Shown here: positions 14,783-62,724 of the stretch, one piece after another | How positions within the stretch are numbered: the first letter of the stretch is position 1 | Layout of the letters: the number at the start of each line of letters is the position of its first letter | Source of the DNA: Ostreococcus lucimarinus | Lineage: Eukaryota | Strand: one strand, 5' to 3' | Length of the DNA: 64,000 nucleotides | Assembly: GCA_000092065.1 (NCBI GenBank) | Contig: CP000581.1 | The notes under the pieces: model-generated | The model's input: only the letters and a program-made list of their open reading frames with translations | Databases searched by the model: none | Told to the model about the DNA's origin: nothing | Program-made: the position numbers and the translations under genes

Positions 14783-16369
14783 TCACGCGCCCATGTACAA
14801 TTTTTGTCGGCGAGTGACGACGATGCGGCAGACGGGACAGCGACGCATGCGGCGAGCGCACTTGCGGCACATGCACGCGTGACCGCAGGGAATTAAGACG
14901 CACTGCACGGGTAAGGTCATGCATACGACGCACTCGCTGTCGGGGACGCCGCTGCGGCGCTTGGACTTTGTGACGACGGGTTCGCCGGTTTCGTCTTCCG
15001 AGACTTCGATGGAGGAAGACGGAGGAATTTCGCCGGTGTCTTCGCGGTCATCGCTATCGTTGGAGTGTGCGGCGGTGGGATCGGTGAGTTCCGAGGTGGC
15101 GTCCTCGTTCGTCGCCGGCGGTTGCTCACCGTCGCCGGCGCCGTCCTCGTCGTCAGACGTGCTCAAATCGCTCGCCTCTTCCCACTCATCCATCACGGTG
15201 TTGTCTTCGCGTTGACGTAACAATGGTTCGTGCATCATCAACCGCTGCGCCCGGATTAAGTTGACCTGTTCCACGTGCCGGCAAAGAATGGCGCGAATGC
15301 AACATCCGAGTAAGACGCCGCTCAACATCACGGCGTATTGCCACGTCTCGCCGTACATCCCGGCCGCGCCGTCGTCGACATCACCGCACGCGTCGCCCAT
15401 CCACCCGATGTGACACTCGCAGTGACCGTCGATGACGCAGTCCCCGTGACCGTTACAGTGATTCAAATGCGAGCACCCGTCGCTCAACGGTTGCGGCGCG
15501 GCGTCTCGTCGCACGCACGCCTTGCAGCATCGCAACGGCGTCGAGGGCACGAGCATTGGCGAGCCGAGGGCGCCCATCGCGGATATCACTGACTCAAACC
15601 CACTCACCGCCGCCCCGTTCGTGCCGACAGCCTCGGGCGTGTTCGTTTGCCCGCACGAAACATCGAACCCTTCCTCCGCCGCGCACTCGCACTCGTTCGT
15701 CCCGAGAGCGTTTCCGCTCGGCAACACAAACTTGACCTTGCAGCACTCGCCTTGGTCTTTGGGATAATAAAACGCCGACCCCCGCGTCGTCTGTGCCTTA
15801 TTCACCCGATTGAAGCCTTGCAAGAATGTCCCCGCCGGGCACACCATGTCCTGTCCCGAAGGCGTGCTCGCCCGCGTGGGCACGCAGTCCACGCTCAGCG
15901 CTCTCAAACTCTCGATCGTCGCCTCTCCGTCCGCCGCGTCCGTCACCGCCGGAAACACATCTCGAACCTTTGTCTTACCGTCCAAATCGCTCGAGCTCAG
16001 GCACGGGACGCAGCATATCGCTCGAGATAGCGGCACCAACCCGTCGCCGCGCCCGTCCCGGCCGGCGTACTCGCCGCTCGCCTCGAAACCGCCCACGACG
16101 GCGCCCTCGCGATCGCACTCGAGCCCGTTTGCCGCGGTCGAAAACGTGCACTGACACAGGCCGAGCGTCCGGAGCGTCGCCGGCGGCTCGGTCGCCGCAT
16201 ACGCGCGCGAAGAAGGCGAAATTTCAGTCGATGACGCGACGCGTTCGACGCGCCTCGTGACGGTGAAACCGCCATCGTCGACGTCCGACGGCGCCACACG
16301 CGCGTGCGAGGCGACGAAACATATCGCGATGCACGAGATGAGAAGCGCGCGGCGCGCGATGGCGCGCAT
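14783..16369 (-). CDS. Type-I membrane protein: signal peptide, Cys-rich/EGF-like ectodomain, TM, acidic region, C-terminal C3HC4 RING (putative transmembrane E3 ubiquitin ligase)
   Basis: Starts at MRAIARRALLISCIAICFVASHA (ATG 16369; the track ORF extends to 16534). Has an EGF-like module CSHLNHCNGHGDCVIDGHCECHIGWMGDAC, a TM segment YAVMLSGVLLGCCIRAILC, a D/E/S-rich segment and a RING finger CVVCMTLPVQCVLIPCGHACMCRKCARRMRRCPVCR. Confidence 0.55.
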   Translation of the reverse strand: MRAIARRALLISCIAICFVASHARVAPSDVDDGGFTVTRRVERVASSTEISPSSRAYAATEPPATLRTLGLCQCTFSTAANGLECDREGAVVGGFEASGEYAGRDGRGDGLVPLSRAICCVPCLSSSDLDGKTKVRDVFPAVTDAADGEATIESLRALSVDCVPTRASTPSGQDMVCPAGTFLQGFNRVNKAQTTRGSAFYYPKDQGECCKVKFVLPSGNALGTNECECAAEEGFDVSCGQTNTPEAVGTNGAAVSGFESVISAMGALGSPMLVPSTPLRCCKACVRRDAAPQPLSDGCSHLNHCNGHGDCVIDGHCECHIGWMGDACGDVDDGAAGMYGETWQYAVMLSGVLLGCCIRAILCRHVEQVNLIRAQRLMMHEPLLRQREDNTVMDEWEEASDLSTSDDEDGAGDGEQPPATNEDATSELTDPTAAHSNDSDDREDTGEIPPSSSIEVSEDETGEPVVTKSKRRSGVPDSECVVCMTLPVQCVLIPCGHACMCRKCARRMRRCPVCRIVVTRRQKLYMGA

Positions 16370-16604
16370 GGCGGCGCGTCGCGCGCGATAATGCCGACCA
16401 ACCGCCGCGCGGGGCGAAGTCGAAGCCGCGCCGCGAAACGAAAATCCACGACGAGACGAACGCGCGCGCCCGAAACCGAAACTAAACGACGAAACGATCG
16501 AACACGAGCGCATCGCTCGACGCGCGACGCTCAAACGGCGCTCTTGACGCTCGATTAAATTCTACCCTAGCGCGCGAAGCCGCGCGGTCGCGCCTCCGCG
16601 CCCT

Positions 16605-17015
16605 CTAATCCTCCTCTTCGTCCACGTACGCCCGCCCACCGCCGAACGTGAACGGCGTCCACCGTCCCTGCACGCTCGGCTTCTTCGTGAAGTGCCTGTG
16701 CTTCATCGGTTTGCTCCCGGGCTTACCCTTTTCGCTCGCCAACCACCGCACGTGCGTCTCCACCGCGTTCGCGCTCAGATTCTTCAACCCCACCGCCTTC
16801 TCGTGCCCGTTCGCGTACGTCGCGCGCACGTGCGGGTCTCCTCCTCTTCTTATCTCCGTCGTCGCCTCGGTTGAGTCGCCGTGGACGAGCGCGCGCGCTT
16901 TAAATTCATCCCAGCCTCCACTCAGGACGAACTCTTTGATCCCTCGCGACGTCCCCGTGACGTCGCAGTACACCAGGCGCAGCGCGCGCAGCTGCGCCAC
17001 GCCGCGAATGGACAT
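16605..17015 (-). CDS. MRPL43: Mitochondrial ribosomal protein L43 (yeast MRPL51 family, L51/S25/CI-B8 domain)
   Basis: 136 aa. LRLVYCDVTGTSRGIKEFV aligns to human MRPL43 LSFSVSRDGASSRGAREFV, and KHRHFTKKPSVQGRWTPFT aligns to KPFHTDNPSIQGQWHPFT. Confidence 0.65.
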   Translation of the reverse strand: MSIRGVAQLRALRLVYCDVTGTSRGIKEFVLSGGWDEFKARALVHGDSTEATTEIRRGGDPHVRATYANGHEKAVGLKNLSANAVETHVRWLASEKGKPGSKPMKHRHFTKKPSVQGRWTPFTFGGGRAYVDEEED

Positions 17016-17236
17016 CGCGCGCGCGCGTCGACCGAGCCTCGCGCGCGACGTGCCGAGACGCGTACGCGCGCCGGTGAGTGCGGCGCCGACGCGGCTTGCG
17101 CCATTCGTCGGCGTCGCGCGCCCGCGACGCGCGATCGATGGCGATGCGCGCGTCGCTCGCGATGCGCTCGAGCGCGTCGGCGCTCGAGCTTCGATGCGCG
17201 CGACGCGCGCGCGTCGCGCGCGCGCGACGCGCGGCG

Positions 17237-17884
17237 ATGATGACGTCGGCTGCGAGTGGGACGACGCGCGTGAACGTCCCGAGCGACGCGCCGTCGGACG
17301 CGCTGGAGGCGCTGCGCGCGGTAGAAGTGATGCGCGCGATCGACGGCGCGCGCGTCACCGTGCCCGAGGTCGTCGGCGCGCGAGGCACGGTGGTGGTGCA
17401 GTTCCTGAGGTCGTTTGGGTGATTTTTCGCGAGCGAGCGAGCGGTGGAGCTCGCTCGCGACGCGATACCGACGCTCGATGCGGCCGGCGTGCGATTGGTG
17501 GTGGTTTCGATCGGAACGCTGGAACGAGCGAAGGATTTTAGCCGGGAGAATGATTTTCCGATCGAGTTGCTGTACGCGGACGCGGAGAGCGCGACGTACG
17601 AGGCGTTGAAGCTGCGAAAGGGCGCGAAACAGACGTTCATGGAGAAGTCGACGCCGGAGAGCATTCTGAAGCGATGGAACAAGGATGGAGCGAAAGATTT
17701 GCTCGGGGTGTTGAAGCGTTGGAAGCCGTGGTTGCCGCCGAGACCGGACCAAGGGTATCAACAAGGCGGCTCGTTCGTGTTTCGAGACGGCGTCGCGACG
17801 TACGTCTCGTACGACGTCTCCACGGGAGCGCACGCGCCGTTGGACGACATTTTCGAAGCCGCGGGCGTCTCGACGTCGAATTAG
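17237..17884 (+). CDS. SELENOU: Selenoprotein U / peroxiredoxin-like 2 (PRXL2, FAM213) family protein with in-frame TGA (Sec) at 17420..17422
   Basis: Track ORFs 17078..17422 and 17444..17884 are in the same frame, separated only by TGA at 17420-17422. The joined protein reads ...TVVVQFLRSFG-U-FFASERAVELARDAIPTLDAAGVRLVVV..., which aligns to human PRXL2A AVIMAVRRPGCFLCREEAADLSSLKSMLDQLGVPLYAVV with U at the first Cys of the CxxC. The C-terminal block GYQQGGSFVFRDG..YVSYDVSTGAHAPLDDIFEAAGV matches GEGFILGGVFVVG..ILLEHREKEFGDKVNLLSVLEAA. The first ATG (MMTSAASG...) is at 17237. Confidence 0.6.
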
Positions 17885-17930
17885 TCGCGCGCGTGATCGA
17901 CGCATAGTTTTCCTCGCGCTAGAGCCGCGC

Positions 17931-17993
17931 TCGCGTCCTCGTGACGTCTCCTCGGCCAAGCGGCTTCGGCCTCCGAAGAGATCGATACGACGC
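17931..17993 (+). promoter_or_regulatory. Candidate form-2 SECIS element in the 3'UTR of the SelU-like gene
   Basis: Helix I is cgcguc (17931-36) paired with gacgcg (17988-93). The 5' quartet gUGA is at 17940-43. Helix II is about 10 bp, 17945-54 paired with 17972-81. An unpaired AA sits at 17957-58, followed by an apical ggc(uucg)gcc hairpin. A 3' GA follows at 17983-84. The element starts 47 nt after the stop. Confidence 0.45.
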
Positions 17994-18022
17994 GTTCGCG
18001 ACCCCGCGCGAGGAAACGCAGT

Positions 18023-18027
18023 GTAAA
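18023..18027 (+). promoter_or_regulatory. Candidate TGTAA polyadenylation signal of the SelU-like gene
   Basis: TGTAA lies about 30 nt downstream of the candidate SECIS and about 140 nt after the stop. Confidence 0.3.
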
Positions 18028-18217
18028 ACAATCAACCAGCTCAGAAATCAGCGCTCCCTCGCCGCCGGCGTCGCACCCGTGCATATATTCTGCTATCTCT
18101 TACAAACGCCGCCCCGACGGCTCGCTACGTACGCCGACTCAGTGTCCGTCCCCCTTCGACGCCTTCACGCTCGCCACGCGCTTCATGTACCTACGCGCGA
18201 GCGCACAAACGCGACGA

Positions 18218-18568
18218 TTATTCCGTCAGTCGCCCATCGCGCCGCGCGCGCGTTCGCTCAGACACCATCAAGCGCGACACCGATCGCCATCGCCACCGTC
18301 GCGCCGATCGCCGTCGACGCCTCGCGCGCGACGCGCGTCCGACGCGCGCGCGACGCGTCGATCGAGGTCGCACGCACTCTTTGTATTGACACTTCTCGTA
18401 CACGTGTCGCTCGTGCCCGCACTTCCACGGGAGGTAGAAGGATTTGCGCCTGCACTCGTTCAGTGGGATGAGAAGGTGCGCGCAAAAGTCTCTGTATCCG
18501 ATGTCGAGCTTGGCGCGCTTCATGTCCTCGCGCGAGGCTATCATTTCGCTTTGGTCGGACGAGCCCAT
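18218..18568 (-). CDS. NDUFB7: NADH dehydrogenase (ubiquinone) 1 beta subcomplex subunit 7 (B18, CHCH-domain)
   Basis: MGSSDQSEMIASREDMKRAKLDIGYRDFCAHLLIPLNECRRKSFYLPWKCGHERHVYEKCQYKE aligns to human NDUFB7 [37 protein letters not shown]. The R-rich C-terminal tail may be an over-extension. Confidence 0.7.
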   Translation of the reverse strand: MGSSDQSEMIASREDMKRAKLDIGYRDFCAHLLIPLNECRRKSFYLPWKCGHERHVYEKCQYKECVRPRSTRRARVGRASRARRRRRSARRWRWRSVSRLMVSERTRARRDGRLTE

Positions 18569-18810
18569 GCCTGCGGTGGACGCGCGCGTCGGCGTGTGAG
18601 GCGCGGGGCGAATCGACGAGAGCGAGACGCTGTCGGGTTACGGCGGGCGAGGCCGGACGCGAGAGAAAGACGGGCGGTGACGGTGAAGACTAGGCGCCGT
18701 GAGACCGTTCTCGTAAGAGTACGCGCGGTGCGTTTCGGGCGTTGAATGGGTACGTGTTACACTTGCATGGCGATTGTCTGAGAGTCGCGCGCGCGCGAAA
18801 TCGAAGACGT

Positions 18811-20637
18811 TCACGCCGCGGGCGTTCTGCGCTTGATCTTCATGGGGAGGCCGCCGGCGGTGTGAATGGTGGCGCCCATCTCCATGCCGATATCTTTCGG
18901 GTCCTTTTGTAACTCGAAATCGTATCGGCGAAGCGTCATCGCCATCGCGATGGTGGCTTCGAGCATGGCGAATTGGTCGCCGATGCACTTTCGCGCGCCG
19001 GCGCCGAATGGGATGAAGGCGAAATCAGAGGCGACTTCGTTGGGGTAGAGCCCAGTGAGCAAATCGGGGTTGTATCCGGCCCAGTCTTTGACGCCTGGGT
19101 TCTTGAAAGGGCGCTTGAATCGGAATGGGTCGAATTCGTCGGGGTTTTCCCAGCACTCGGGTGAGCGGTGCAAATTCCACACGCTGATAAAAATATCCAT
19201 CCCCTTGATGAGAGTCACTTCGACATCTCCCGCGCCCTTGGGCAGCGTCACGTCTTCGAGGCATCGACGAATGAGAATCGGTGGCTCTGGGTACAGACGC
19301 AACGCCTCGGCGATGCACAAACGGACAGACTCGAGCTTTTGGATGTCGTCGTACGTGGGCGTTCTGTCGTCGTCGCCGAAGACTTCGTCGATGTCGGCTT
19401 GGATCCTCTTGAGCAATTCAGGCTTTTGCACCAAACAAAACAAGCCCCACGTGAGCACAGCGGCGGTGGTCTCGTGACCAGCGATGAGCATGGTCATCAA
19501 ATCATCGCGAAGCTGCACGTCCGTGACGTCGGCGCCTCGAATGTCGACCAGAAATCGCAACAAGGACGGATCCTTGACTTTGCTGTAATCTCTGTTTTGC
19601 AACTCTTCCAAATCGTCCGTGCCTTCGAACTGTTGCGCTTGCTTGATCAATCCGTTCAACGTGTCGTTGATGATGGACATATTCTTCTTAAACTCGCGCT
19701 GTCGAGGGACGATGTCCGTCGCGAAGGGCAAGTTCCAATAGGGAAAATAAAACGTACTGCGATGCGCCGCCTCTTGCAAGCAGTTGTACACGGCGCTGAT
19801 GATGGGAGACTCCTTTGTCACCGACCCAAAATCGTAGTTGAATACCGCCAAGCCGATAATATCCAAACTCACAGAGCAAAAACGCTCCTCCATGTCCACC
19901 ACTTCGCCGCTCGCCGCGGCTTTATCCAAATTCCGCACGAGCGCGTTCGAGCAGTGACCGAACAAGCCGACCATGTGATCGAGCCACGCCTTGTGAAATC
20001 CCGGCACGAGTTGCCGACGGCGATTCTTCCACACGGCGTACGGCGCTGGAATCAGTCCCTGTCCCATGATTGGCTCCAAAATCTCCGCCAGCACCCCTTT
20101 ATCGAACGAAAACGGCTTCTCCTTCAGCACCTCTCGCACGACGACGGGATCGCTCAGCACCATGAAAACCTTGGGCCCGAACGCCAACTTGAACACCCCA
20201 CCGTACCTTCGAAAGTACGGGTACAGCGCCAAGAAAATCGGTCCCCCCACCAAATCATCGATCACGCCCTCGCACACGGGCGCGTTATCCTTGCTCTCCT
20301 TATCGCCGTACGTCTGCAAAATCTGCGTCACCCACAGCGAGACGATGTCGCGAAACTTGAGCTCCTCGGGCTTGAAATCATCGCTCGGGATCGTCTCCTC
20401 CTCCGGTTCCTTCACCGCCCGCGCGACGACCGCGCGATTCCACGCGTCACCGACCGCGCGTTCGCGCGCGGCGTCGCCCCGCCGCGGCGTCGCGCGACGC
20501 ATCGCGCGCGTCGGCGCCGACAGAGCCGCTAGGGCAACTCTAGCGCTTCGCGCGCGCCGCGCGCCCGCGCGCGCGCGACGCGCGCCGAGCGTCGTCGACG
20601 TCGACACCGCGGCGCTCGATACCATCGCGGCGTGCAT
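18811..20637 (-). CDS. CYP97: Cytochrome P450, CYP97-like (carotenoid hydroxylase type), with chloroplast transit peptide
   Basis: Heme-binding loop FGAGARKCIGDQFAMLEATIAMAMTL. The I-helix block LRFLVDIRG..QLRDDLMTMLIAGHETTAAVLTW closely matches CYP97A/C. The N-terminus is S/T/A/R-rich (MHAAMVSSAAVSTSTTLGARRARAG...). The track start is TTG at 20688; the first ATG is 20637. Confidence 0.8.
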   Translation of the reverse strand: MHAAMVSSAAVSTSTTLGARRARAGARRARSARVALAALSAPTRAMRRATPRRGDAARERAVGDAWNRAVVARAVKEPEEETIPSDDFKPEELKFRDIVSLWVTQILQTYGDKESKDNAPVCEGVIDDLVGGPIFLALYPYFRRYGGVFKLAFGPKVFMVLSDPVVVREVLKEKPFSFDKGVLAEILEPIMGQGLIPAPYAVWKNRRRQLVPGFHKAWLDHMVGLFGHCSNALVRNLDKAAASGEVVDMEERFCSVSLDIIGLAVFNYDFGSVTKESPIISAVYNCLQEAAHRSTFYFPYWNLPFATDIVPRQREFKKNMSIINDTLNGLIKQAQQFEGTDDLEELQNRDYSKVKDPSLLRFLVDIRGADVTDVQLRDDLMTMLIAGHETTAAVLTWGLFCLVQKPELLKRIQADIDEVFGDDDRTPTYDDIQKLESVRLCIAEALRLYPEPPILIRRCLEDVTLPKGAGDVEVTLIKGMDIFISVWNLHRSPECWENPDEFDPFRFKRPFKNPGVKDWAGYNPDLLTGLYPNEVASDFAFIPFGAGARKCIGDQFAMLEATIAMAMTLRRYDFELQKDPKDIGMEMGATIHTAGGLPMKIKRRTPAA

Positions 20638-20751
20638 CGCGCGACGGACGCGCGCGTCGCGTCTGCGTCGCGGAATACCGTTCGTCAACCGACCGCTCGA
20701 GCGCGACGCGACGCGCGCGCGTCAGTCGTCGGCGCGCGCGCGACGGCCCGC

Positions 20752-32990: not shown

Positions 32991-33057
32991 GATTTCACGT
33001 CACGGCAACGTTTAGCAAGACAATGCCGTCACGTCACGTCACGGCACGTCACGCGTG
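32991..33057. promoter_or_regulatory. Cluster of tandem ACGTCA/TGACGT (CRE / as-1 / C-box-like) motifs immediately upstream of the NHE start codon
   Basis: Two stretches, tcacgtcacggc at 32995-33006 and ccgtcacgtcacgtcacggcacgtcacgcgtg at 33026-33057, give at least six GTCAC/ACGTCA half-sites 20-85 bp 5' of ATG 32972 on the transcribed strand. Confidence 0.35.
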
Positions 33058-33290
33058 AAAACAGCACGACGAACGAAGACGCGGCCGCGCGGCAACGCGA
33101 TCGCGCGGCCGCGCGCTCGAGCGGCGACGGCGAACGCCGCGAGCGCCGCGCGTGGTTTACGCTCGCGCGCGGACGTGTGCTGGAGGCGCGTCGTGACAAG
33201 GCGCGGTCACCTCGTCGGTTAAAGAAACCCGGGAGTCGTGAGGTTTGCACTCGTTGTTGAATTGAAGTGGTTGTATTACACGACGAAACA

Positions 33291-50980: not shown

Positions 50981-52012
50981 ATGCGCGCGTCGTCGCGTCG
51001 CCGCGCGCGCGCGCCGACGGCGCGGCGGTTTTTCGCGCTCTTTTCGTCGCTCGCCGTCGCGGCGCGCGCGGCGCCGGACAGGGTCGGCTGCGACCGGAAG
51101 GTGTCCGGCGTCGACATCATGACGAAATCGAGGATAATGGACCGGACGCCGAGCGTCGGGTCGTTCGTGACCGCGAGCGCGCCGACGTACGGGCCGAACG
51201 ATCCGATAACGATCACGCTCACCGGTTTGGCGCGCGCGGCGTTCGCGCACGCGAGCGCGGGGACGGCGACCACCATTTCTGGATTCACCGCGAAGTCGTG
51301 CGGCGGGACGGCGCAGCAGTACGCGAACTCGGGCGCTTCGGGAACGAAGACGTTCACGTGGACGGCGCCCGCGGATCTCACGAGCGTGTCGAGCGTGGAT
51401 ATTTCGGCCGGGTACGCCGCCGGGCAAGGCGCGGTGACGAGACAGACGATCACGCTGACTCGAGCGCCGGGGGCGGCGTGCGCGACGAACCAACGCGTGT
51501 CGAGCGGCGCGTGCGTCGCGTGTCCGGCGGGATCGACGCGCGCCGCGGGCGATCCGGTGTACGGCGGCGATACGACGTGTACGGCGACTCTGTGCGCGAC
51601 GAATGAACGCGTATCGAACAACGCGTGCGTCGCGTGCGCCGGGTCGGCGACGAACGCCGCCGGCGACGACGCCACGCAATCGGATACGACGTGCGACGGC
51701 GCGGCGTGCGCGTCGAACCAACACGTCTCGTCCAGCAGCTGCACCGCGTGTCCCGCGGGCACGACGCGCGCCGCGGGCGATCCGGTGTACGGCGGCGATA
51801 CGACGTGTACGGCGACCGCGTGTGGGGCGAATGAACGCGTATCGAACAACGCGTGCGTCGCGTGCGCCGCGTACACCACCAACGCCGCCGGCGACCTCGC
51901 CAACGGCGGCGACACCGCCTGCGACGCCGCCTCGGCCGCGCCGGCCGGTCCAAAATTTATCGTATTCGCCCTCTTCACCGCCCTCGCGTGCGCGTGCGCG
52001 CGCGTCGCTTGA
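50981..52012 (+). CDS. Secreted/GPI-anchored-type surface protein with four tandem ephrin-receptor-like (TNFR/EGF-like) cysteine repeats
   Basis: Signal peptide MRASSRRRARAPTARRFFALFSSLAVAARA, ATG at 50981; the track start 50942 is TTG. There are four repeats of CxTN(Q/E)RVSxxxCxxCxxGxxxxxGDxxxxxDTxCxxxxC, for example ACATNQRVSSGACVACPAGSTRAAGDPVYGGDTTCTAT. The C-terminus is hydrophobic, PKFIVFALFTALACACARVA. Antisense track ORFs 50770..51978 and 50957..52018 are rejected. Confidence 0.55.
   Translation: MRASSRRRARAPTARRFFALFSSLAVAARAAPDRVGCDRKVSGVDIMTKSRIMDRTPSVGSFVTASAPTYGPNDPITITLTGLARAAFAHASAGTATTISGFTAKSCGGTAQQYANSGASGTKTFTWTAPADLTSVSSVDISAGYAAGQGAVTRQTITLTRAPGAACATNQRVSSGACVACPAGSTRAAGDPVYGGDTTCTATLCATNERVSNNACVACAGSATNAAGDDATQSDTTCDGAACASNQHVSSSSCTACPAGTTRAAGDPVYGGDTTCTATACGANERVSNNACVACAAYTTNAAGDLANGGDTACDAASAAPAGPKFIVFALFTALACACARVA
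51470..51930. repeat. Tandem duplication (about 228-230 bp period) inside the ephrin-like repeat coding region
   Basis: gcgcgccgcgggcgatccggtgtacggcggcgatacgacgtgtacggcgac occurs at 51536-51587 and 51766-51817. gaatgaacgcgtatcgaacaacgcgtgcgtcgcgtgcgcc occurs at 51601-51640 and 51829-51868. These near-identical DNA copies encode the Cys-repeat modules. Confidence 0.65.
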
Positions 52013-60826: not shown

Positions 60827-61858
60827 TCATAGCTCGGCTTCCGCGAAGACTTGCGCGTCGTCGTCGTCAAACGCCTCGGGAGACCACGCAATACCCGCGG
60901 TCGCCACGTCGTCAGGTACGCGACCACCCATGCGTTCTATCGATTCGCTTAATCGCTCGATCGCGAGCGATTTCGATTTATCGCTTTGACTCAAAGCCTC
61001 GATCATGCGCCTCGCTCGATGAACGCCTCTAGTCATTTCCTCCTTTTCGCGGATCGATTCCAGCAGTTGCTCCGCCAACGCAGCGACGAACGGATCGCTC
61101 GGCGTCGCACCCGACATCAGAAACGATCTATACTGTTCGATCATGTCCTCACGAATTCGATGCGCTATTTGATCCACCTCTGCCGCCTTTTGAGTCGAAC
61201 GAACGTGCTCGCTCCACTCGCGAAGTCGGTGCGCCGATTCGTCCTCGTCTCCCGCGCCTTCGTCCTCCATCGTCATCGGCGGCGCCGACGCCGTCTCCGG
61301 GCCTTCTAAGCCGTCATCATCGACTAACACGCGCCTCGGTGGCCCTATGGGCGACGCCGATCGTCGAAGACCGCTCGGCGACACGATGCGAGGCGACGAC
61401 GCCGGCGACGAACCCGCGCCGCCGGGCGACGACGCGGCGCCACCGAATTCGCGCCCTCGTCGCGTCGTCCCGCTCTCCGGCGACGCTCCGACGGCGATGG
61501 AAATCTCTCGCAGCGCTTCCGCCACGCGCGCGAAGCTATCGACGGTCACGCGTCCATCCGGTCCTCGGCGCACGAGCTCGAGCGCCGCTCGCACCTCCGG
61601 CGTCGTCTCCGCCAGCGCCTCCAGGTGTTTCAGCGCCGCGTCCACGCTCGCGTGCGCGTCCGCGTCGTTCGTCGCGTCGGCGCGCGCGCTCGACGGCGCG
61701 TACTGCGCCCGCAGGCGGTCGCGCGGGGAGGATGCGTGTTCGAACTCGCGTTCAAATTTGCCGGCGGAAACGTCGACGGTGTGCGGCGGTGCGACGTACG
61801 GACGCGCGGGCGACGCGCGCGCGCGCAGGTTTTCCATGCGCTGTCTCAAGTTTTCCAT
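60827..61858 (-). CDS. Hypothetical protein (Ser/Pro-rich middle, conserved-looking C-terminal helical region)
   Basis: Track ORF 60827..62137. Its 5' 93 codons overlap the Mpv17 gene in another frame, so the start was placed at ATG 61858 (MENLRQRMENLRARA...). The C-terminal region HRIREDMIEQYRSFLMSGATPSDPFVAALAEQLLESIREKEE is non-repetitive. No family recognised. Confidence 0.35.
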   Translation of the reverse strand: MENLRQRMENLRARASPARPYVAPPHTVDVSAGKFEREFEHASSPRDRLRAQYAPSSARADATNDADAHASVDAALKHLEALAETTPEVRAALELVRRGPDGRVTVDSFARVAEALREISIAVGASPESGTTRRGREFGGAASSPGGAGSSPASSPRIVSPSGLRRSASPIGPPRRVLVDDDGLEGPETASAPPMTMEDEGAGDEDESAHRLREWSEHVRSTQKAAEVDQIAHRIREDMIEQYRSFLMSGATPSDPFVAALAEQLLESIREKEEMTRGVHRARRMIEALSQSDKSKSLAIERLSESIERMGGRVPDDVATAGIAWSPEAFDDDDAQVFAEAEL

Positions 61859-61974
61859 CGCGCGGTCGATGCGAGCGCGCGCGCGCGGCGGAGTGTCGCG
61901 GCTCGAGTTCGGCGCGGCGGCGACGCGGCGCGTAACCGACGATATTACAATATTACGGGACGAGCGCGACGAAT

Positions 61975-62724
61975 CTATCGCTTCTTGGCGTTCTTGTTCG
62001 CCGCCGGCGCGGGTTTGTTCAGGTTGATGCTCAAGATGACGTTCCACACGATGGAACACGCGGACATGTACAACACCTGGTGCTTGGTCGGGACGAAGGC
62101 GAAGTTGACGCTCGACGCCGGCACCCAGAAGGACCAACCGGCGCGAAGCGTCGGTAAGGCGTCTCGGCGCACCTTGCCCGGATACTCAGCGACGGTGCCG
62201 CCCCAGATCGCTCCCCACAGAAAGAACGTCGTCACGACGATCGGCCCTAACACGGCTTGGTTTAAGAAGACCTTGGCCGCGAACGGCGAAAGCGATTCGG
62301 CGGTGAGCGCGAACGCGCGCGCCGGAAACTTTGAAGCCAGCGCGATGTACCAGTGATGCTGCACGGGACCGTAGAAGAAGAAGTTATACAACGCTTGTTT
62401 CAGCGTGCGCTCGAAGTCGTGCGCTTCGACGACCGGGGCGGCGTTTTTATTCTTCTTTGAACCGACGGCGTCTCGCGCCGCCGCGCGTCTCGCGCCCGCG
62501 TCCCGTTTCTGCGCCACCGTGTCCCCGACGCACCCGAGCGCCGCGCACACGAGCGCAGATTTCAACAACGGCTTACCTTCGATCGCGTTGATGACATCTT
62601 TAGCCCCAGCGCGCGCGCGCACGCTTCGCGACGCGCGCTTGTTCGCGTCGAAGTGTCCCTTACCGTTGGACGAAAACGGCGAACGACCGCGGCCGAACGA
62701 CGACGACATCGGACCGAAGCGCAT
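61975..62724 (-). CDS. Mpv17/PMP22 family peroxisomal/mitochondrial membrane protein (SYM1-like)
   Basis: 249 aa with four TM helices and the family C-terminal block GWSFWVPASSVNFAFVPTKHQVLYMSACSIVWNVILS. ATG at 62724. Confidence 0.7.
   Translation of the reverse strand: MRFGPMSSSFGRGRSPFSSNGKGHFDANKRASRSVRARAGAKDVINAIEGKPLLKSALVCAALGCVGDTVAQKRDAGARRAAARDAVGSKKNKNAAPVVEAHDFERTLKQALYNFFFYGPVQHHWYIALASKFPARAFALTAESLSPFAAKVFLNQAVLGPIVVTTFFLWGAIWGGTVAEYPGKVRRDALPTLRAGWSFWVPASSVNFAFVPTKHQVLYMSACSIVWNVILSINLNKPAPAANKNAKKR

Follow-up and report, generated by a model that had tools for sequence, protein, structure and literature searches.

The window analyzed here is a 64,000-nt stretch of the Ostreococcus lucimarinus CCE9901 genome. 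The feature at 17138..17884 on its plus strand is almost certainly an intronless gene encoding a Trx-fold selenoprotein that belongs to the AAED1 (PRXL2C/SELENOU2-like) branch of the Prx-like2/AhpC-TSA_2 family. A preliminary description of the locus had pointed out that a TGA is all that separates two adjacent open reading frames (17078..17422 and 17444..17884) of the same frame. Indeed, the two frames lie 366 nt, or 122 codons, apart in a single register, and the TGA is the sole stop codon between them. The features of the gene, including a SECIS element, a poly(A) signal, and a stable hairpin just downstream of the UGA, are compiled in Table 1.

The gene is already known, and our reading is a correct rediscovery. 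It was published in 2007 as a "Trx-fold selenoprotein" of O. lucimarinus at Chr_1 [945135, 945881] (Lobanov et al. 2007, Genome Biol 8:R198, PMC2375036). In Additional file 2 of that paper, the sequence is headed "Trx-fold protein". The published 747-nt CDS corresponds to 17138..17884 and has the same length, and the protein is identical to ours (MAMRASLAMR...VVQFLRSFGUFFASERAVELARDAIPTLD..., with U at residue 95). According to the same source, the gene was detected with SECISearch, 29 selenoproteins were predicted in O. lucimarinus, and 75Se labelling and a Sec tRNA were reported for O. tauri (PMC2375036). ARAGORN detected no tRNA genes in the 64-kb window, and hence no tRNA-Sec there. A neighboring protein of 136 aa (L43) exactly matches O. 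lucimarinus XP_001415982.1. The discovery value of the present analysis is small, as the 2007 paper already gives the gene with its Sec residue and chromosome coordinates; the full selenoprotein gene model can nevertheless be recovered by reading the raw sequence alone. Two details would be inexpensive to follow up: the conserved post-UGA hairpin, a possible Sec redefinition element (SRE), and the monoselenol UxxA active site in a Cys-free protein. Neither is mentioned in the accessible parts of the text and supplement of the 2007 paper (PMC2375036).

The start codon had been placed at 17237, 99 nt further downstream than in the published model. The ATG at 17138 is the likelier start, because the published model uses it and because an N-terminal extension is present in every orthologue that reaches upstream. 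In O. tauri, L006, L011, and L014, whose contigs all extend far enough upstream, this extension comprises 35–50 residues, is rich in R/A/S/T and poor in acidic residues, and follows the first in-frame ATG. Its composition points to an organellar destination, most likely the plastid, and the plant homologue carries the name "AAED1, chloroplastic". A GC-rich imperfect repeat (17111-17233) overlaps the coding region of the extension.

Table 1. Features of the Trx-fold selenoprotein locus (window positions)
Feature	Position	Strand	Details or basis
Full CDS, Trx-fold (AAED1/PRXL2C-like) selenoprotein	17138..17884	+	248 codons + TAG; Sec is codon 95
R/A/S-rich N-terminal extension, putative organellar transit peptide	17138..17275	+	residues 1-46; orthologue comparison
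Segment removed as "intron" in RefSeq XP_001415644.1	17396..17437	+	42 nt; codes for VQFLRSFG-U-FFASE
In-frame TGA, selenocysteine codon (codon 95)	17420..17422	+	invariance and Cys alignment
Stable hairpin, candidate Sec redefinition element	17427..17465	+	starts 5 nt after UGA
AhpC-TSA_2 (Prx-like2) domain match	17450..17815	+	PF13911; residues 72-193 of the 215-aa query starting at 17237
Stop codon TAG	17882..17884	+	translation
SECIS element, form 2, GUGA type	17932-17994	+	constrained folds, covariation, pattern scan
SECIS helix I	17932-37 with 17989-94	+	
SECIS quartet, G + UGA + C	17941-45	+	partner C-GA-U at 17983-86
SECIS helix II	17946-55 with 17973-82	+	9/10 positions paired
SECIS unpaired AA	17958-59	+	
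SECIS apical mini-stem, GGC(UUCG)GCC	17962-71	+	
TGTAA poly(A) signal	18022..18026	+	documented species signal

Selenocysteine codon and 3′UTR elements

The TGA is invariant, in syntenic loci, in all Sec-form relatives that were fetched. Six of these are further lineages of the Ostreococcus type, two are Mamiellales-like and more distant, and one is a chlorarachniophyte (Amorphochlora). At least nine lineages show the same TGA, in genome and metagenome assemblies that are independent of one another. As the preliminary description had proposed, the U falls on the first Cys of the CxxC motif: it aligns with the Cys of FGCPFC, FGCFFC, FGCPCC, RRPGCFLC, and RNFLCYTC in Cys homologues, as well as with that of RHFGCPCC, and the close relative L017 has TGC at this codon. 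The alignment of the read-through protein with its relatives, suggested earlier as a check, reveals conserved flanking residues and mostly synonymous changes. Specifically, the 14 codons around the TGA carry 3–6 synonymous versus 1–2 non-synonymous changes per Ostreococcus-like lineage, and amino-acid conservation continues upstream of the TGA (PSDAPSDALEALR..., VVxFLRSFG). This substitution pattern indicates protein-coding constraint on the frame both 5′ and 3′ of the UGA.

Every element that had been described for the 3′UTR stem-loop is present, and its assignment as a SECIS element is supported by both architecture and covariation. The hairpin begins about 47 nt past the TAG, as stated earlier, and the GUGA core lies 57 nt past it. 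Manual and constrained folds recover the same architecture, once per 3′UTR, in all seven Ostreococcus-like orthologues. Helix II, which is also recovered by RNAalifold, is 91% paired with compensatory changes at five of its ten pairs; none of 500 shuffles reaches this score, and the core is invariant. A SECIS pattern scan of both strands of the window yielded two sites, compared with a mean of 0.3 in 30 Markov-2 simulations, and the chance expectation for a given 150-nt 3′UTR is, by arithmetic, about 4e-4. The site downstream of our gene is the only one outside coding sequence. The other (61117-61152, minus strand) lies inside a 436-aa open reading frame (...AHRIREDMIEQYRSFLMSG...) and is a chance match that fits the expected 0.3. 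With a SECIS covariance model, the gene's own site scored 70.6 bits and the next best 17.1 bits. This next-best site, at 33013-33058 (minus strand), consists of intergenic CGTGA/GTGACG repeats with no 3′ GA in register and is not a SECIS element. The Rfam SECIS covariance models gave no match on a 2.1-kb slice, nor on a 121-nt slice even at E ≤ 10, and the Rfam scan of the whole window at gathering thresholds returned no SECIS either. The putative cause of this miss is the Ostreococcus-type architecture, with its GUGA core and its apical mini-stem. Since the whole 96-nt region is no more stable than its shuffles (z −0.9), folding energy by itself would not identify the SECIS element.

A TGTAA signal follows, as noted earlier, although the position then given (18023) is off by one base. 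UGUAA serves as the predominant poly(A) signal in O. lucimarinus (PMC6413133). A single TGTAA is located 138–179 nt past the stop codon in five of the seven Ostreococcus-like lineages, while the background is 0.41 per kb per strand.

Protein family and predicted active site

The read-through product matches Pfam AhpC-TSA_2 (PF13911) with 85.2 bits (cut-off 27; E 5.5e-24), and a second, weaker match to AhpC-TSA extends across the TGA position. A PDB sequence search with the protein returned no relative at E ≤ 1. The fold was therefore approached through an AlphaFold model (pLDDT 86) of P0015, a Cys homologue with 47% identity. In this model, Cys97, which corresponds to the U, is predicted at a strand-to-helix junction immediately before helix 98-117. 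A fold search of the PDB with the same model identified human prostamide/prostaglandin F synthase (PGFS/PRXL2B; 9usa, E 1e-7) as the best match, followed by PrxQ/BCP peroxiredoxins. In the homologue model, the predicted fold is that of a thioredoxin, and helix α1 begins at the redox residue.

The active-site motif is UxxA (U-F-F-A), not UxxC, and lacks a resolving Cys. U-F-F-A is found in the Ostreococcus-like lineages, and UxxC is kept in the more distant Sec forms L013 and L016 and in Amorphochlora. The mature protein contains no Cys at all.

Alternative readings of the locus

Public annotation uses a different model, in which a 42-nt intron beginning with GT and ending with AG removes the TGA, leaving a 200-aa protein without selenocysteine (XP_001415644.1) whose junction joins GARGTVV directly to RAVELARD. 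However, the excised stretch encodes the β1-α1 active-site segment present in all homologues (FRSFGCPFCQE and similar), and its splicing would delete the catalytic residue. Across seven lineages, the stretch evolves as coding sequence, with mostly synonymous codon changes that include six-fold-degenerate Ser, Arg, and Leu switches, and the conserved SECIS element in the 3′UTR also speaks against the model. The intron is spurious, and there is only a very slim chance that the RefSeq model is right; as a result of this intron, XP_001415644.1 still lacks the active site. Alternatively, the TGA could be a genuine stop, leaving a pseudogene or two short open reading frames, or it could be an assembly error. 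Standard gene callers do split the locus there in every assembly, and 40 of the 45 database homologues are fragments of about 145 aa that begin just after the Sec position, the annotated Amorphochlora protein included. Such fragments are the expected product of gene callers stopping at the UGA. The recurrence of the TGA in independent assemblies and the conservation upstream of it argue against both versions, and neither half alone would be predicted to form the thioredoxin fold, which makes the probability of a stop or an error practically negligible. It is also exceedingly improbable that a near-cognate tRNA for Cys, Trp, or Arg decodes the UGA instead of Sec-tRNA, with an unrelated hairpin in the 3′UTR. 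Sequence alone cannot prove which amino acid enters, and the Rfam models did not match. Nevertheless, the hairpin has all the SECIS determinants, an invariant core, and covarying helices; the redox Cys position is the classic site of Sec/Cys exchange, at which a relative has TGC; and the large Sec-dependent proteome reported for this organism uses the same GUGA-type SECIS (PMC2375036).

The remaining question concerns the branch of the family, in which SELENOU1, SELENOU2, and SELENOU3 correspond to PRXL2A, PRXL2C, and PRXL2B, respectively. The gene had been assigned to the PRXL2/SelU family. The PRXL2/AhpC-TSA_2 part of this assignment stands, whereas SelU applies only in the broad sense and the SelU1/PRXL2A branch does not. 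Orthology of the gene with SelU proper (SELENOU1/PRXL2A), as implied by the earlier comparison with human PRXL2A, would be in line with the shared Pfam family and the Sec at the homologous position. However, the scores of the protein are only 22 bits (human PRXL2A) and 31 bits (O. lucimarinus SelU), both at about 25% identity, as compared with 93.6 bits for plant (Castanea) AAED1 (38% identity, E 2e-27) and 42 bits for chicken AAED1 (E 1e-9). Its motif is LRSFG-U-FFA and not the RRPG-U/C-xxC that defines SelU sensu stricto. Furthermore, the 2007 paper lists a separate O. lucimarinus SelU gene with the motif MRRPGUVLC and aligns the present gene with proteins now called AAED1 (PMC2375036). Orthology with SelU proper is accordingly highly unlikely, and the pairwise scores indicate closest similarity to the AAED1/PRXL2C-like branch.

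Post-UGA hairpin, proposed mechanism, and known systems

The hairpin that starts shortly after the UGA has an MFE of −30.6 kcal/mol (z −4.1), none of 200 shuffles is equally stable, and no other 48-nt window of the CDS is as stable. In seven of the eight lineages compared, its stability exceeds that of synonymous recodings (z −2.7 to −4.5); the remaining lineage, L006, lacks it. Its covariation is modest, with compensatory changes at three of nine pairs. Among the Cys-form controls, L017 (TGC) keeps the hairpin, and L018 carries an insertion, perhaps an unspliced intron, immediately 3′ of the Cys codon. SREs have been described as lying a short way 3′ of the UGA (review, PMC8704476), and none of the papers searched ties Ostreococcus selenoprotein genes to them. 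The hairpin is possibly an unreported feature. That it is a functional SRE, preserved throughout Mamiellales because selection acts on synonymous sites, is a tentative proposal that we consider possible but on balance doubtful. If true, SRE-type recoding stimulators would operate in green-algal Sec decoding and not in animals only. SREs of SELENON (SEPN1) and SELENOT were reportedly described by Howard and colleagues in 2005. The candidate resembles them as a coding-sequence stem-loop that follows the UGA-Sec codon by a few nucleotides, but it shares no sequence similarity with them, is missing in L006, and is kept in the Cys-form L017. More speculatively, the hairpin, whose loop begins 21 nt downstream of the UGA, could represent a relic of a bacterial-type SECIS element; the Trx-fold family has been classed as homologous to bacterial selenoproteins (Lobanov et al., PMC2375036).

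By analogy with established eukaryotic Sec decoding, SBP2 would bind the kink-turn of the SECIS element and recruit eEFSec with Sec-tRNA[Ser]Sec, upon which the ribosome would insert selenocysteine at UGA codon 95. The stable hairpin may slow termination in an SRE-like manner and thereby aid Sec insertion. In the protein, the Sec probably acts as the redox nucleophile at the N-terminus of helix α1, following strand β1 of a peroxiredoxin-like thioredoxin fold, because the equivalent residue sits there in the model of the Cys homologue. Given the UxxA motif and the absence of Cys from the mature protein, the oxidized selenium would be resolved by an external thiol such as that of glutathione or thioredoxin, in the manner of 1-Cys peroxiredoxins. 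The enzymatic activity, reductant, and localization of the Trx-fold selenoprotein are what we infer from these comparisons.

Among known proteins, PRXL2B (PDB 9usa/9us9) and PrxQ/BCP are the best structural matches to the P0015 model (E 1e-7 to 1e-5). They share the thioredoxin fold with the catalytic residue starting helix α1, but they carry Cys instead of Sec, and at 12–21% identity a common substrate specificity cannot be assumed. SELENOU1/PRXL2A, found in fish, birds, diatoms, and Ostreococcus, has the AhpC-TSA_2 domain, the homologous Sec position, and a 3′UTR SECIS element in common with our gene, but it forms a paralogous branch with an RRPGUxxC motif and is encoded by its own gene in the O. 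lucimarinus genome. The nearest named relatives are the plant and animal AAED1/PRXL2C (SELENOU2) proteins, which share the Prx-like2 fold, the redox position, and the N-terminal extension. They differ in having Cys within CxxC, whereas our protein has Sec within UxxA, with neither a resolving nor any other Cys in its mature form. The SECIS element conforms to the Ostreococcus type depicted in Fig. 1 of the 2007 paper, with an unpaired G before the quartet, form 2, and a mini-stem (PMC2375036). The G before the UGA, the form-2 AA bulge, and the apical mini-stem are shared by all seven Ostreococcus-like orthologues; the O. lucimarinus mini-stem is short (3–5 bp), and the more distant Sec-form relative L016 has AUGA in place of GUGA. 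Finally, the Trx-fold selenoprotein gene of that paper is the present gene itself without any difference, sharing the start MAMRASLAMR, and its O. tauri orthologue corresponds to our loci L003-L005.

Gene identity and the RefSeq model

The gene has a SECIS, a poly(A) signal and, where the redox Cys of homologues stands, a recoded UGA; the observation of the preliminary description is confirmed and its interpretation supported, with three refinements, which concern subfamily, start codon and active-site motif (UxxA). The two ORFs it had joined lie in one frame, and the TGA is the only stop that divides them. The read-through protein is exactly the 'Trx-fold protein' of Lobanov et al. (2007, Genome Biol 8:R198, PMC2375036), who reported 29 selenoproteins in O. 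lucimarinus. Its entry in Additional file 2 begins MAMRASLAMRSSASALELRCARRAR, continues VVQFLRSFGUFFASERAVELARDAIPTLDAAGVRLVVVSIGTLERAKDFSRENDFP, and is aligned with O. tauri, Thalassiosira, Arabidopsis, rice and chicken homologues. The published location, 'O. lucimarinus (Chr_1 [945135, 945881])', spans 747 nt, exactly the length of the gene in the window. Since both protein and span match, the analysis rediscovers a selenoprotein gene already known since 2007. Its remaining value lies in a RefSeq mis-annotation and a candidate SRE-like hairpin.

The public model XP_001415644.1 (200 aa) reads ...GARGTVV|RAVELARD..., and the segment VQFLRSFG-TGA-FFASE is missing, being handled as a 42-nt GT...AG intron. 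This intron is spurious, and the model lacks the Sec codon and the active-site segment with its catalytic residue. The neighbouring 136-aa mitochondrial L43-like protein exactly matches XP_001415982.1, encoded on a 1,152,508-bp contig of O. lucimarinus CCE9901. The gene order RING/EGF protein, L43, Trx-fold selenoprotein, NDUFB7 and cytochrome P450 recurs on several longer contigs of relatives with Mamiellales-like genomes (L001–L008, L011 and L016).

The start proposed earlier, 17237, is probably not the true one. Every orthologue with enough upstream sequence has an R/A/S/T-rich N-terminal extension of 35–50 aa, which supports the start at 17138 and suggests organellar targeting; a plant homologue carries the name 'chloroplastic'. 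In the short intergenic stretch from which this gene and the L43 gene diverge lies a GC-rich imperfect tandem repeat (GCGTCGCGCGCGCGCGACGCGCGC), which overlaps the gene's 5' end and most of its presequence codons.

Coordinates of the features in the window
Feature	Position (strand)	Detail
Conserved gene order	14783–20688	
L43-like gene	16605–17015 (-)	
Upstream ORF	17078–17422	ends in the TGA
Tandem repeat	17111–17233	period 24/50
Trx-fold selenoprotein gene	17138–17884 (+)	
RefSeq 'intron'	17396–17437	
Sec codon	17420–17422	codon 95
U-F-F-A motif	17420–17434	codons 95–99
Hairpin 3' of UGA	17427–17465	begins 5 nt past UGA
Downstream ORF	17444–17884	
SECIS helix I	17932–37 with 17989–94	
SECIS core	17941–45 with 17983–86	
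SECIS helix II	17946–55 with 17973–82	
SECIS unpaired AA	17958–59	
SECIS mini-stem		GGC(UUCG)GCC
TGTAA	18022–26	
CGTGA/GTGACG cluster	33013–33058 (-)	
Tandem repeat	51473–51902	228 bp, 1.9 copies, 86% match; 114-bp sub-period
Second SECIS-pattern site	61117–61152 (-)	in 436-aa ORF, 60827–62137 (-)

The Sec codon, active site and family

A homologue search returned 45 proteins, 40 of which are fragments of ~125–160 aa whose N-terminus lies just after the TGA position, the expected product of gene callers that stop at UGA. The few full-length homologues have Cys at this position (Phaeomonas, FRSFGCPFCQE; a metagenomic homologue, FMRSFGCFFCWE; Castanea AAED1, LRHFGCPCCWE), which bears out the placement of U at the first Cys of the family CxxC motif. 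In DNA fetched from relatives, an in-frame TGA occupies the identical position in a near-identical strain (L001/L002), O. tauri (L003–L005), four further Ostreococcus-like lineages (L006–8, L009/10, L011/12 and L014), two more distant lineages (L013 and L016) and the chlorarachniophyte Amorphochlora amoebiformis (GCA_054601695.1, L015, about 1170–1215). At the Amorphochlora locus the sequence runs FFRSFG-TGA-MFCQ and then enters an intron; P0021, the protein annotated there, begins at the Met directly after the UGA and looks like another truncated selenoprotein model. The metagenome relative L017 (687–1124) has TGC (Cys) where L016 (1123) has TGA.

The protein sequence is also conserved on the 5' side of the TGA. 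Over the 14 codons that RefSeq treats as an intron, 3–6 synonymous versus 1–2 non-synonymous codon changes are seen per Ostreococcus-like lineage, including switches among Ser TCG/AGC/AGT, Arg AGG/CGA/CGG and Leu CTG/TTG/TTA/CTC. This pattern reflects protein-coding constraint and excludes an intron, a true stop and a sequencing error.

In place of UxxC or CxxC, the Ostreococcus-like lineages (orthologues L003, L006, L009, L011 and L014) have U-F-F-A, in which the second Cys is exchanged for Ala. Cys is absent altogether from the mature proteins of O. lucimarinus, O. tauri, L006 and L011, which implies that the enzyme works by a monoselenol mechanism and relies on an external reductant. L013, L016 and L015, the Sec forms further removed, retain UxxC. 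The protein would act as a Sec-dependent thiol-peroxidase-like or oxidoreductase enzyme.

When searched with C in place of U, the read-through product matches Pfam AhpC-TSA_2/Prx-like2 (PF13911) at 85.2 bits (cut-off 27, E 5.5e-24), and a weaker AhpC-TSA match covers the TGA position. The proposed SelU/PRXL2 assignment thus holds in the broad sense, since current nomenclature equates SELENOU1/2/3 with PRXL2A/PRXL2C/PRXL2B (PMC13134290; see also PMC3473315). The subfamily differs: BLASTP gave 93.6 bits (38% identity) to Castanea AAED1, 42 bits to chicken AAED1, 31 bits (25% identity) to O. lucimarinus SelU (MRRPGUVLC), which is a different gene, and 22 bits to human PRXL2A. On these scores, the gene belongs to the AAED1/PRXL2C-like branch. 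In the AlphaFold model of P0015, a Cys homologue with 47% identity (pLDDT 86, pTM 0.82), the U-equivalent residue lies after strand 86–92 and directly before helix 98–117. Among PDB structures, this model is matched best by human prostamide/PGF synthase (PRXL2B, 9usa; E 1e-7) and next by PrxQ/BCP peroxiredoxins.

The SECIS element and poly(A) signal

In each Ostreococcus-like orthologue, the first 300 nt of the 3'UTR contain a single GTGAC. Folding with the quartet bases held unpaired yielded one common architecture in all seven, comprising a long helix I, an internal loop, the quartet, a helix II of 9–10 positions, an AA-containing unpaired stretch and an apical mini-stem. The quartet is G-UGA-C opposite C-GA-U (C-GA-C in O. 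tauri). Helix II was recovered unaided by RNAalifold; in the trimmed alignment, pairing holds in 91% of its cells and compensatory changes occur at 5 of 10 pairs, a covariation score reached by 0 of 500 shuffles, while slid registers reduce pairing to 28–55%. Helix I differs in sequence in each lineage and forms in all. The common fold and the covariation thus substantiate the SECIS-like hairpin noted earlier, which matches the Ostreococcus SECIS of Lobanov et al. (PMC2375036) in its unpaired G before the quartet and its mini-stem. SBP2 would bind this hairpin and recruit eEFSec with Sec-tRNA to decode the UGA, as in the standard eukaryotic pathway.

The Rfam SECIS models did not match the 3'UTR hairpin, presumably owing to its GUGA core and apical structure. 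The SECIS of L016 has an AUGA core. A simple pattern (GUGA...AA...GA with helices) scanned on both strands of the window found 2 sites versus 0.3 expected; the second falls within a long ORF and is taken as a chance match. A covariance model from the orthologues scored the SECIS site at 70.6 bits and everything else in the window at 17.1 bits or less. One weak hit is not a SECIS but a CGTGA/GTGACG repeat cluster (GCGTGACGTGCCGTGACGTGACGTGACGG...GCCGTGACGTGA) between two minus-strand genes, which could act as a promoter or as some other cis element.

The TGTAA signal proposed after the SECIS is present, one base before the position 18023 first assigned. In O. lucimarinus, UGUAA is documented as the main signal for polyadenylation, at 30.4% of sites (PMC6413133). 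In five of seven Ostreococcus-like lineages one TGTAA lies 138–179 nt past the stop, the background frequency being 0.41 per kb per strand; the O. tauri gene has TGTAT instead, which is among the variants listed (PMC6413133).

The hairpin 3' of the UGA

In a sliding-window scan, no other part of the O. lucimarinus CDS is as stable as the hairpin just past the UGA (MFE -30.6 kcal/mol, z -4.1; 0 of 200 dinucleotide shuffles as stable). Among eight lineages, which are not independent, UGA-adjacent windows rank among the top few in seven. The native 54 nt are likewise far more stable than synonymous recodings of the same peptide in 7/8 (z -2.7 to -4.5; no more than 0.6% of the recodings equally stable), including UxxC lineages, whose peptide differs. 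The hairpin is absent in L006, and in the codon alignment it covaries modestly, with compensatory changes at 3 of 9 pairs. The Cys-form L017 retains it, with synonymous sites from -30 to +42 near-frozen relative to L016 at an overall nucleotide identity of only 74%; its upkeep may therefore be independent of Sec decoding. Our literature search found no paper tying this gene to an SRE. SREs have been described downstream of the UGA in SELENON and SELENOT (PMC8704476), and the hairpin, a candidate SRE by analogy, resembles them in its position 3' of the UGA.
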